Positions 2,940 through 58,695 of a DNA stretch of 64,000 nucleotides are shown one piece after another; within the stretch, counting starts at the first letter, position 1; every line of letters starts with the position of its first letter. Source of the DNA: Peribolospora baueri (lineage: Eukaryota). The notes under the pieces are model-generated. The model was not told the DNA's origin and did no database searches. It saw only the letters and a list, made by a program, of their open reading frames with translations. The stretch lies in contig JAMDHS010000029.1 of the NCBI GenBank assembly GCA_029717555.1, forward strand, positions 1-64,000. The letters run 5' to 3'. Made by a program: the position numbers and the translations under genes.

Positions 2940-8555
<5,616 letters not shown>

Positions 8556-39599: not shown

Positions 39600-41688
<2,089 letters not shown>

Positions 41689-51202: not shown

Positions 51203-53875
51203 CTACACTTTCACTCCCAACGCCACAAGCCCCTTGAGCGCCACGACGGCGGGCATCACAATCTCCCTGACCTTTGTCTCCACCACGACGGTCTTGAGCG
51301 CCTCGACTACGCCCGCCTCTTTCAACACTTCCAGTTCCGTGCTAGCAGGTTTGACGGCGCCGGAAGCGACGATGGCGCGGAGAATCTCGACTCCTCGATG
51401 GCGAAGACCGATCAGCGCCGCTTCGCGCGCGGGTCCGGAGGGCGAGACGTCTTCTCCGTTTTCTTCGTCGCCGCCCGCTTGAGCTCCGTTCTCGTCGCCT
51501 GAAGCCGAGATTTCTCGGAACCTCGAAGGAACGACGAGATCGACCACCATCTCCACTCTCTTCTTCCCCAAACCGATGATAGTCTTTGCAGCACGCGGGG
51601 AACACGCGAGAGTCGCAAGCGCGCCCGAGGCGGCAAGCCTGGTCGGGAGGTCACGCACGGTGGAGAGGGCGAGAAGGAGGTGGAGCTGGCTAGCGGAGCG
51701 GGAAGGAGCGCGACCTTCTCCGCGTTCGTCTTTGCCGGCCGCGGAAGGGGAAGGATCGGACCCGTCGCTTGACGGAGCATCGTCCTCGCCAGTGTATCTC
51801 ACGAACACCTCTTCACAACCCACCAAGTTGCATGTCAGCTCGGTAGCCGCTCTTCGGACCATGTAGTTCTCGTCGAGCAGTCGAGCCTCGATCTCTTCTA
51901 GCAGGAATCTTTGATGACTTCCGTTCGCCTTTGAAGAGGCCGGACCGTCAACGGACCTCTTGGTAGAGCCTCCGACAGACACTTTAAGAGTTGAAATTCT
52001 CATAGGCACCTCGGCACCCACGGAAGCGAGGTTGGTGAGCGCCATGAGGGCTTCGAACTGCTGCAGGAGGGTGGAGACGGGATGGACGAGGAGGACGCCG
52101 AGAGGGAGCAGGGCCGGCAGGACCGACGCGGGAGACGGGCCAAAGAGTACTGGCGGCGGAGAGGTGATGGCCAGTTTCGCGAGGGCTTGCAGCGGCGCCA
52201 GGTCGTCAGCGCTGAGCTCAATTAACGTCGTCGCTTGCTGTTGCGATTGCTGCTCAGCCAAGTCGGGCCGAGGCTTGCCAGAAGGGGGCGCAAGATTCGC
52301 CATGACGGCACTTGAAAGCCTCAAAAGCGCCTTGAGAGCACCGCCTTGGATCGCTACCCCCCGCTCCTCCTTCCTCTCCACCACCGCGAGCCATATCTTG
52401 CCCAACGCTTTCCGGACCGCATCGCTCCTTCTGCGACTTCCCGGTCCGAGTTGGACGGTTGTGGCATCCGGGATCACCGCAATGTCGCCGGTGCCTACAA
52501 GTGCGGGCAGCAGGTCCGCCTTGAGCAGTCGCTGCACCCTCGCGTGTACGGCCTCGTCCGAATTGAGCGGGTGGTTCCGCTCATTGTCGGTGTCGACCTT
52601 CCCTGCCGCACCGGAAGGGGTGGTGGCGCTTTTGGCCTTAGCCATAGCTCGCAGACGCTCCATCTGCGCGTCTTCGGAGGATTGAGGGGTTTTATAAGAG
52701 ACAAGGTGAAGAATGATCGTTGACACGGCGAAGAGCATCGCGGCGTCCGTGCCCTCCCCGCTGATCGAGTCGACTTTTCGCTCCATATCGTCGTACGCAG
52801 AGCTGGAGCTCATTTCGCCTGTATTGACCGAGGACAAAGAAGGGAAGACAGATTTGCGGGATCTGGACGGCAAGAGGGCGAAGAGAGCATGAAGGAAGGA
52901 GATGTCGCGAGAAAGAGCATCCTTGATGGCGGGGCGGAGACAAAGGTAGACGAGACCTTCCAAAGCGGAGAGCAGGCTTTGGGGTGCTTGTCCGTCCTTC
53001 GCCATCCCCTTGGGCGGCTGGGCCAAAGAAGAAGAGAGTACGAGGCCCTTGAACATGTCCGCCAAGCGCTCAGCCTCGCCTTTTCCCGCCGCCCAGGTGA
53101 CCGGCCCTCCGTCTGCTTCTCCCGCACCGCCAGCTTGCAGCTTCGTAAGAGCAACAGCAGCCGAAGCTTTCAGTCGCGCTCCGTCATCATCCGCGCCCTT
53201 CGCCATCTCTCCCACGCATCTACTCGCATCTTCCAGCCATCTCACCGCCTCTCCACCGTCTGTCGCCGTCAACGTCGCCCTGCCCTCCTTGTTGCTCACA
53301 AAGGCCGATAATAGCTCTGCTATTCGACATCGCACGTCGTAAATCCGGCCGGGCAAAGCATTCGCGGTATCGGCAGCTTCAAGGGCTGAGGACAGCAGAG
53401 CAGGAGCGGAGAGGAGGGAGCGGGCGAGCGAGGGGGAGAGCTGGGAGACGGCGATGAGGAAGGAAAGCGCGGACAGGATAGCGGCGGCGTCGGTGTCAGC
53501 GAGCGAAGAGCGGACGACGGGCTCAAATAGGCTGAGGAGCCCCGCGACTTGACCATTGCCATCACCAGCTACGACGTCTGCGCCTTCTCGTGCCAACGCC
53601 GCAGAGAGGGCAAGATAAGCTAGCGAGGTGATCCTCCGCCGATCAGACGAAGATGCGCTCGAGTCGAACGCGGCCACTAGTCGCGAAGCGTCGGAAGTCA
53701 TCAGCGGATCAGCGGATTGAGCGAGTGCGGTGAGAAACGCCCCCGTCTCCTCCACCAACTCTCGGGAGGGCTGCCCGGATGGCTGGGCAAGGCCGTGGCG
53801 AGCGGCCATGGTGTTCGCTGGCTGGCGAGATGGCTTCGAAGACGGTGATGCTGAAGTCGACGCCGCATGGGCCAT
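51203..53875 (-). CDS. UCS-domain myosin chaperone (She4/Cro1/UNC-45-like); intronless
   Basis: Single long ARM-like ORF with ALEGLVYL, ERGVAIQGGA, LLQQFEALMALTNLAS, NYMVRRAATELTCNL, RLAASGALATL and LRHRGV. The start at 53875 (MAHAAS) is chosen by inference; the ORF is open from 54049. Confidence 0.85.
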   Translation of the reverse strand: MAHAASTSASPSSKPSRQPANTMAARHGLAQPSGQPSRELVEETGAFLTALAQSADPLMTSDASRLVAAFDSSASSSDRRRITSLAYLALSAALAREGADVVAGDGNGQVAGLLSLFEPVVRSSLADTDAAAILSALSFLIAVSQLSPSLARSLLSAPALLSSALEAADTANALPGRIYDVRCRIAELLSAFVSNKEGRATLTATDGGEAVRWLEDASRCVGEMAKGADDDGARLKASAAVALTKLQAGGAGEADGGPVTWAAGKGEAERLADMFKGLVLSSSLAQPPKGMAKDGQAPQSLLSALEGLVYLCLRPAIKDALSRDISFLHALFALLPSRSRKSVFPSLSSVNTGEMSSSSAYDDMERKVDSISGEGTDAAMLFAVSTIILHLVSYKTPQSSEDAQMERLRAMAKAKSATTPSGAAGKVDTDNERNHPLNSDEAVHARVQRLLKADLLPALVGTGDIAVIPDATTVQLGPGSRRRSDAVRKALGKIWLAVVERKEERGVAIQGGALKALLRLSSAVMANLAPPSGKPRPDLAEQQSQQQATTLIELSADDLAPLQALAKLAITSPPPVLFGPSPASVLPALLPLGVLLVHPVSTLLQQFEALMALTNLASVGAEVPMRISTLKVSVGGSTKRSVDGPASSKANGSHQRFLLEEIEARLLDENYMVRRAATELTCNLVGCEEVFVRYTGEDDAPSSDGSDPSPSAAGKDERGEGRAPSRSASQLHLLLALSTVRDLPTRLAASGALATLACSPRAAKTIIGLGKKRVEMVVDLVVPSRFREISASGDENGAQAGGDEENGEDVSPSGPAREAALIGLRHRGVEILRAIVASGAVKPASTELEVLKEAGVVEALKTVVVETKVREIVMPAVVALKGLVALGVKV

Positions 53876-57200: not shown

Positions 57201-57545
57201 CGAGAGAACAGGGAATAGACCACCTGTGTAAGCCCATGTTCCGGTCCCAAGAAGGGCTTGCTTACAAGCAAGCGACGAAGTCACGCAGGAGGGGACGCGA
57301 GCGTACCATCGAGCCTGATCTCGTTTTTGGTGCGATCGATGACCAGCACCTGACCTTTCTCGCTGCCGGCAGCCGAAAGAGGCTCGAGGGTGTACGCGTC
57401 TGGCGCAACGTACCTGAAGACGAGGAGACGGGTGTTGGAGGAGAACCCATGAAGAGTGAGCCAGAGGGGACGAGCGTGCATCGGAAACCGACGACGCCGA
57501 GATGAGGTGGACTGCTCACATCCGAAAACCGTCATGGAGCGACAT
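54266..57545 (-). CDS. SAC1: Sac1 phosphoinositide phosphatase
   Basis: [57 protein letters not shown], catalytic [16 protein letters not shown] (split by an intron), [28 protein letters not shown] and two C-terminal TM segments. Ends KQRID*. Confidence 0.93.
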
Positions 57546-57956: not shown

Positions 57957-58695
57957 CTATCGAGCCTCGAAGGCAACCTAGATGCGAGGGGGAGGAGAGG
58001 CGGGCAAGGGCAAGGGCAAGAACGGTGAGAAGGGTTCATGACACTGTGCTCGCGTCTGGGTTCGAAAAAGATAACAACCGGCACTCACCACTGCAAAGGC
58101 GACGAATAAAACGGGGCAGTGAGCAGGAAACAGGAAAGAGGAAACAGACAGCAAAGGTTACGGTCAGCCACACATTTGAATAAGCACACTGCGTCCATCT
58201 CGTTTGACGCGAACTTCGAGCTTCAGACGTTGTCCCATCTCCAAAGCCGGACAGGCGGACGAAAAGATGACAACACTCACTCCTGTTCGTCCTCTTTTTG
58301 TACATCACACGATGTCCACACTCCTTGCACCGGATCGGCTCGCGCGGTTTAATGTCGTTTGTCGCTCCGCAATCTAGAGGAAAGCAATTATTACCGGAGG
58401 AATGGTCGGGAATAGGTAGTCAGGTGGAAGGAGGAGTGGTCGCGGGTGGGGGTCAGTCCATGGATCAAGCGCGCAAGTGACGCCTCCAGACGTCTCCGAT
58501 GTCGTTCACATGACAGCAAGATATATAGGCGGACGGTGTACCCAAAGTGCACATGTCCAAGCGCCTCTCTTCTCCCGTTATGCACCAATTCATCCACTCA
58601 CCAGCACAAAGGTACTCCATCGGCCGAGGCCTGTTCTGCCCGAACCCGCCGCCGCCGCTCGTCGCACCCGCGCCCGCTGACTGAGGGTAGCTCAT
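57957..58695 (-). CDS. RPB12: RNA polymerase I/II/III shared subunit RPABC4; 4 coding exons including a 2-nt exon
   Basis: Spliced product MSYPQ...[44 protein letters not shown]: zinc ribbon plus the conserved FEAR C-terminus. Confidence 0.93.

Follow-up and report, generated by a model that had tools for sequence, protein, structure and literature searches.

A predicted two-nucleotide exon between two adjacent intron positions in the RPB12 gene of Peribolospora baueri

The RPB12 gene of Peribolospora baueri very probably contains a real and constitutive exon of two nucleotides (TG, positions 58090-58089, minus strand), although its splicing is deduced here from genomic letters. The gene lies in a 64,000-nucleotide stretch of contig JAMDHS010000029.1, referred to below as the window. 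Fungal exons of this size have been described before, and what seems to set this one apart is the coexistence in one gene of two intron positions that lie two bases apart and that other fungal lineages keep singly. RPB12 is a small subunit common to all three RNA polymerases, and its essentiality is known in yeast.

The gene is read on the minus strand. Coding exon 1 (58695-58602, 94 nt) starts at the ATG, reaches as far as the first zinc-ribbon Cys and ends in phase 1. It is followed by intron 1 (58601-58374, 228 nt, GT-AG) and by exon 2 (58373-58281, 93 nt), which encodes the zinc ribbon and the basic stretch and whose last base is the A of a Met codon. Intron 2 (58280-58091, 190 nt) would interrupt this codon in phase 1, a location termed position A, and has a pyrimidine-rich 3' end. 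The TG then fills out the Met codon, and intron 3 (58088-57978, 111 nt) follows in phase 0 directly after the Met (position B). The last coding exon (57977-57957, 21 nt) holds six codons and the TAG stop. GTGAGT is the donor of all three introns, and the acceptors are TAG, CAG and TAG (introns 1, 2 and 3, respectively). The TG is therefore bordered by canonical introns, with CAG before it and GTGAGT after it, and introns 2 and 3 each possess their own donor, branch-like site, pyrimidine tract and acceptor. The candidate branch-like sites are a distal CTGAC (58167-58163) and a proximal CTCAC (58123-58119) in intron 2 and a CTCAC (58029-58025) in intron 3. An earlier interpretation made from the letters of the window (the sequence-only reading) had given the same coordinates, all of which were borne out on re-reading, and the CTGAC/CTCAC sites and pyrimidine tract it had described upstream of the TG are indeed present in this part of intron 2. 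A U-rich stretch that agrees in 12 of 13 bases is found at 58280-58262 and at 58088-58066 (minus strand) and could be a shared splicing enhancer.

The gene name RPB12, already proposed in the sequence-only reading, agrees with the searches. The PF03604 profile matches exon 2 alone with an E-value of 1.4e-14 and 53.9 bits (Pfam cut-off 24), and exon 2 matches solved RPB12 chains with E-values of 7e-11 and up. When the draft assembly (668 contigs, 22.7 Mb) was searched, this locus was the one RPB12 match. By these matches, the locus is identified as RPB12 (RPABC4, ABC10alpha). Compared to the RPB12/RPABC4 family the protein is ordinary, and the gene structure alone departs.

The case for the TG starts from the reading frame. 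With the TG included, a 69-aa protein with the C-terminal ending of the family is obtained. When exon 2 is joined directly to the last exon, the frame is broken, as had been noted before, and a frameshifted product of 110 aa results. Retention of intron 3 gives 99 aa and retention of intron 2 gives 143 aa, neither with the conserved tail. In the gap between exon 2 and the last exon (303 nt), 31 internal exons able to restore the frame are possible. Among these, only the TG at 58089-58090 combines a consensus donor with Met plus six residues; the other 30 have non-consensus donors, and with them the length of the tail is altered or the Met is replaced. The sole alternative exon of 2 nt requires a GC donor and encodes Asn. 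In 104 of 120 relatives the tail after the K.RT.. motif consists of exactly 7 residues (MVQFEAR in 98 of these); the sequence-only reading had given the family ending as KKRT.R[ML]V.FEAR. In the present gene this 7-residue tail is obtained solely with the TG included, and the claim that a 2-nt exon is needed for the conserved C-terminus stands as the sole sensible solution among the 31.

The splice-site motif contributes less. YAGTGGTRAGT occurs once in the window where 0.04 occurrences are expected, and 4 of 100 shuffles also reach one. The pattern YAG-NN-GTRAGT was found 5 times in 528 kb (both strands), corresponding to 0.003 expected in the 303-nt gap. Genome-wide, a loose micro-exon motif gave 29 matches versus 25 for the reversed control, and strong acceptors were present in 7 of the 29 versus a background of 12.7% (P 0.066, not significant). 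The AG-free tract before the TG acceptor (96 nt) is the longest among these 29 matches. However, the tracts of introns 1 and 3 measure 108 and 64 nt, so that a long AG-free tract is a habit of this gene and not special to the micro-exon. The motif alone is not diagnostic. The case for the TG rests on its position and on the exact restoration of the tail.

The same gene could be followed in relatives. A metagenome scan, in which the end of exon 2 and a donor after the A were required, returned 104 loci; its pattern is blind to genes with the donor after the ATG (position B only) and to the Rhodotorula-type motif. Of the 104, 102 carry a single intron, after which the last exon opens with TG; the other two loci are cut short. 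Because these 102 last exons begin with TG after a donor that follows the A, the TG is exonic in the relatives and the position of intron 2 is shared. Their single introns are 47-102 nt long and represent 80 distinct sequences in about 55 clusters. In 102 of the 103 loci that are long enough, an AG stands where the acceptor of intron 1 ends here, at a distance of 93 nt upstream of the donor of exon 2. The encoded proteins of the 104 loci resemble the Agaricomycete RPB12 set. Among the 102 complete loci matching the after-A donor pattern the micro-exon was found in none, and its presence in a relative, Rhodotorula paludigena, is suggested by one protein model (see below). The viral and prokaryotic collections gave 0 matches each.

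Protein models that run into an intron provide a second readout, as they reveal where the intron starts. The best 150 representatives were used, of which 142 were new and 134 contained the motif. Of the latter, 104 break after the first codon base (position A), 13 are complete, 10 break at position B and 7 are of other kinds. The named position-A read-throughs include three chytrids and one Agaricomycete, and several of the remaining position-A proteins resemble solved RPB12 chains that are presumably animal. In the 10 position-B proteins, the Met is followed by Val-Ser/Arg/Gly or by Ala-Arg, a pattern that fits a donor immediately behind the ATG in a gene without intron 2. These cases are genomic, as intron 1 is unspliced in seven of them and some come from contigs 6-42 kb in length; P0245 and P0246, in which intron 1 is absent, might represent transcripts that are partly spliced. 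Another position-B protein, P0378, is almost identical to P0302 of Microstroma glucosiphilum (Microstromatales-like). The tail of the Violaceomyces palustris model fits a phase-0 acceptor before the Val. From two further read-throughs, P0337 and P0348, RPB12 may have yet another intron position, which would lie inside the Val codon, one base downstream of B.

The model from R. paludigena (GJN90826.1) is of a different kind. After the basic motif, it continues with the last exon, out of frame, following a lone A, and this is apparently just what would be obtained if the corresponding 2-nt exon were skipped. Of the 7,370 Ser positions in the proteins collected, only the one in GJN90826.1 gave the strict skip-type fit, and the chance rate of such a fit in genomic DNA is 4 of 20,896. 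A looser skip target gave a second fit at the same junction, in the read-through P0289, and this fit is probably due to chance. Because the machine-made model looks wrong at intron 1 too, GJN90826.1 is a single imperfect witness. It nevertheless agrees with the earlier expectation that gene predictors miss such exons, and it suggests that a 69-aa essential subunit is likely to be mis-modelled wherever the TG exon occurs.

These observations bear on the history of the two introns. Position A is ancient. Position B is predicted in Ustilaginomycetes, Exobasidiomycetes and Microbotryomycetes; both the class with B alone and the Rhodotorula state are deduced from protein read-throughs, not from DNA. 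In near intron pairs and intron shifts, as treated in PMC2891723 and PMC5587772, the positions likewise differ by a few bases across orthologues; here, however, both are present in one gene. By the criterion of two positions less than 32 nt apart, A is found alone in DNA and B alone is inferred from the 10 read-through proteins, while the two are not mutually exclusive within this gene. The sequence-only reading had recognized the exon itself and had missed that introns 2 and 3 form such a pair, whose members are single in other lineages.

The scenario to which we lean, by a small margin of belief, is a surviving two-intron state, with reciprocal loss elsewhere that mimics a two-base intron slide. 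Intron 3 would have been inserted two bases downstream of A early in basidiomycete history, and this gain would have split a former last exon of 23 nt into parts of 2 and 21 nt. Both introns would have been kept here and probably in Rhodotorula, B would have been lost in Agaricomycetes, and A in several smut-type lineages. The TG exon may then well date to the early basidiomycetes, as the intermediate of an apparent slide that is kept in this genome and in Rhodotorula.

As the main alternative, intron 3 could have arisen by independent gains at G|GT in several lineages, or as a recent copy of intron 2, with no long-lived two-intron ancestor. This would be compatible with the DNA, as both introns together are known from this genome alone, and a match as good as the 12-of-13-base stretch just after the donors of the two introns is met in 0.4% of random donor pairs (a post hoc comparison). 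However, when the introns are compared over their whole length, with composition-keeping shuffles as the reference, they show no significant similarity (p 0.12), and both are without other copies in the genome. Moreover, a phase-0 intron at this very place is predicted for the Ustilaginomycetes, Exobasidiomycetes and Microbotryomycetes. The alternative is thus considered a serious though rather doubtful one. Some of its narrower forms were rejected. A duplicate of intron 2 was set aside as the donor-proximal match does not extend over the whole introns, and an introner because introns 2 and 3 each give one self-match in the genome (diverged copies could be missed). A gain unique to this lineage was dropped, since the read-through proteins show position B elsewhere; the scan pattern forced an A|GT donor and thereby hid the position-B class.

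The placement of the host touches on the same question. The best matches of the prolyl-tRNA synthetase (ProRS) in the window are 38-40% identical. In a ProRS tree of 38 sequences chosen from 120 listed matches, a sample in which named Agaricomycotina and Microbotryomycetes are lacking, the window protein is sister to the sampled Ustilaginomycotina (support 100/99). The host is a basidiomycete-type fungus whose lineage is placed loosely.

If the lineage pattern holds true in DNA, the two-intron history favoured above would provide a concrete case in which the members of a near intron pair coexist. Near intron pairs would then be weaker as exclusive markers in intron-rich fungi. It would also add a third route to apparent sliding, namely a gain followed by reciprocal loss via a micro-exon, which near-intron-pair reasoning deems very unlikely.

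For the splicing of the gene, a simple course can be proposed. An exon of two bases is too small to hold both site-recognition complexes simultaneously. The RPB12 pre-mRNA would contain two ordinary GT-AG introns separated by two bases, each recognized across its own length (intron definition) and taken out sequentially. Removal of intron 3 first would leave a single-intron substrate of the Agaricomycete type, and removal of intron 2 first one of the smut type. As each order would leave a normal single-intron substrate, neither should need anything special. In both cases the TG would complete the Met of the conserved M-V-x-F-E-A-R tail. For the 1-nt exon of APC11, intron definition with sequential removal is likewise the explanation favoured by the authors of PMC4674806. 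RNA structure around the TG is weaker than in shuffled sequences (z +1.45; 94 of 100 shuffles fold at least as well). The RPB12 transcript is short, serves a housekeeping function and has consensus donors at all three introns, and so offers a clean substrate for studying the order of removal and the rate of skipping.

The sequence-only reading had also suggested that skipping of the exon could act as an on/off switch, with the TG left out under some condition and RPB12, and so all three RNA polymerases, cut back. Skipping would indeed destroy the tail (the 110-aa frameshifted product), a regulated micro-exon switch is reported for Trichoderma Xlr2 (PMC11121469), and retention of both introns since the early basidiomycetes, if so, may point to selection. 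However, the TG has a full-consensus donor and an acceptor with the 96-nt AG-free tract, RNA folding around it is unremarkable, and each intron appears to be lost in other lineages with the protein unchanged. Since the skip frame would run past the normal stop of the last exon, the cell would be left with a scrambled protein instead of a clean off state. In APC11, moreover, the 1-nt exon is described as constitutive (PMC4674806). The switch is thus unsupported and considered quite improbable.

Less probable still is the reading that there is no micro-exon, so that one long intron is removed and the frame is restored by a non-canonical or weak site or by another small exon. The options considered were a donor shifted two bases downstream, which would give Ser, a donor of the GC-AG type or farther away, and another small exon. 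The gap does contain the 30 other frame-restoring AG..GT/GC combinations, and a donor at 58260 would give an in-frame insertion of 7 residues. All of these alternatives, however, involve a non-consensus donor together with an altered length or replacement of the Met. In the related loci the donor after the A is present in 104 of 104 (as required by the design of the search) and is followed by AG|TG in 102. A stwintron was rejected as well, as each intron has its own complete signals and the two intervening bases are coding. An assembly error or a pseudogene is barely conceivable: the assembly is a draft of 668 contigs, but the 111-nt insert carries a donor, a branch-like site, a pyrimidine tract and an acceptor and sits exactly between codons, and the coding parts are all intact in a gene with no other RPB12 match in the assembly.

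A 2-nt exon in itself will not surprise a fungal genomicist. According to PMC12230235, Coprinopsis cinerea has 13 annotated exons of a single nucleotide, 57 of two and 27 of three, and omission breaks the frame in 63 of the 89 gene models with exons of 1-3 nt. The rarity that the sequence-only reading implied was thus overstated, given the 57 exons of 2 nt and 13 of 1 nt in this source. Exons down to 1 bp are likewise reported for Cryptococcus neoformans in PMC3990503. Both fungi are basidiomycete, and C. cinerea also has internal 2-nt exons whose omission is frame-breaking. However, those exons rest on long reads or RNA-seq and the RPB12 exon on genomic sequence. A search of the five supplementary files of PMC12230235 for RPB12, rpc10, RPABC4 and PF03604 gave no match.

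The closest parallel is found in plants. Arabidopsis APC11 contains a constitutive 1-nt exon that is conserved in most land plants (PMC4674806, PMC8831610). Like the TG of RPB12, it is a frame-setting tiny exon in a small housekeeping subunit that was missed by annotation, and it too was merged into a larger exon where lineages lost introns. The APC11 exon is 1 nt long, from a plant and experimentally shown, whereas that of RPB12 is 2 nt long, from a fungus and deduced from sequence. Most monocots are intronless in APC11, whereas each flanking intron of RPB12 appears to survive alone in different lineages. A paper on an RPB12 micro-exon was not found in the openly accessible literature.

Several other candidate tiny exons were encountered in this genome. 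A candidate obligatory 2-nt exon AC lies at L145:810-811 (G000:C262, about 112449-112450, plus strand) in an ExoIII/APE1-like gene; the introns on its two sides measure about 108 and 113 nt, and its inclusion gives one open frame across the flanking exons. The downstream exon matches the ExoIII/APE1 family only, and weakly (E 0.3-1.5), and the upstream exon does not match this family. In a gene that we take to be a glycoside hydrolase, a candidate 2-nt exon TG (L025:1510-1511, G000:C16, about 52064-52065, plus strand) would start a Trp codon, and the next exon is about 11 nt long. At L013:698-699 (plus strand), the bases AT form one more candidate 2-nt exon, whose acceptor is strong and whose donor is GTGCGC. 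A further motif match, L143 (G000:C230, about 138190, minus strand), was rejected as an ordinary exon beginning with Gly-Val-Ser, in what is presumably a PHF5A/Rds3-like gene.

Other observations concern the window itself. Besides RPB12, it contains exons at about 4490-8380 (plus strand) that presumably encode the largest RNA polymerase III subunit. The motif match at 39898-39914 (minus strand) is a mimic formed by the end of an ordinary actin exon. Several introns interrupt this actin gene (39600-41550, minus strand), in which position 41550 is the start of a candidate exon of 17 nt. At 57413 (minus strand), a strong-looking acceptor is directly followed by a donor-like hexamer, which would correspond to a zero-length exon or to an exon starting with GTA.
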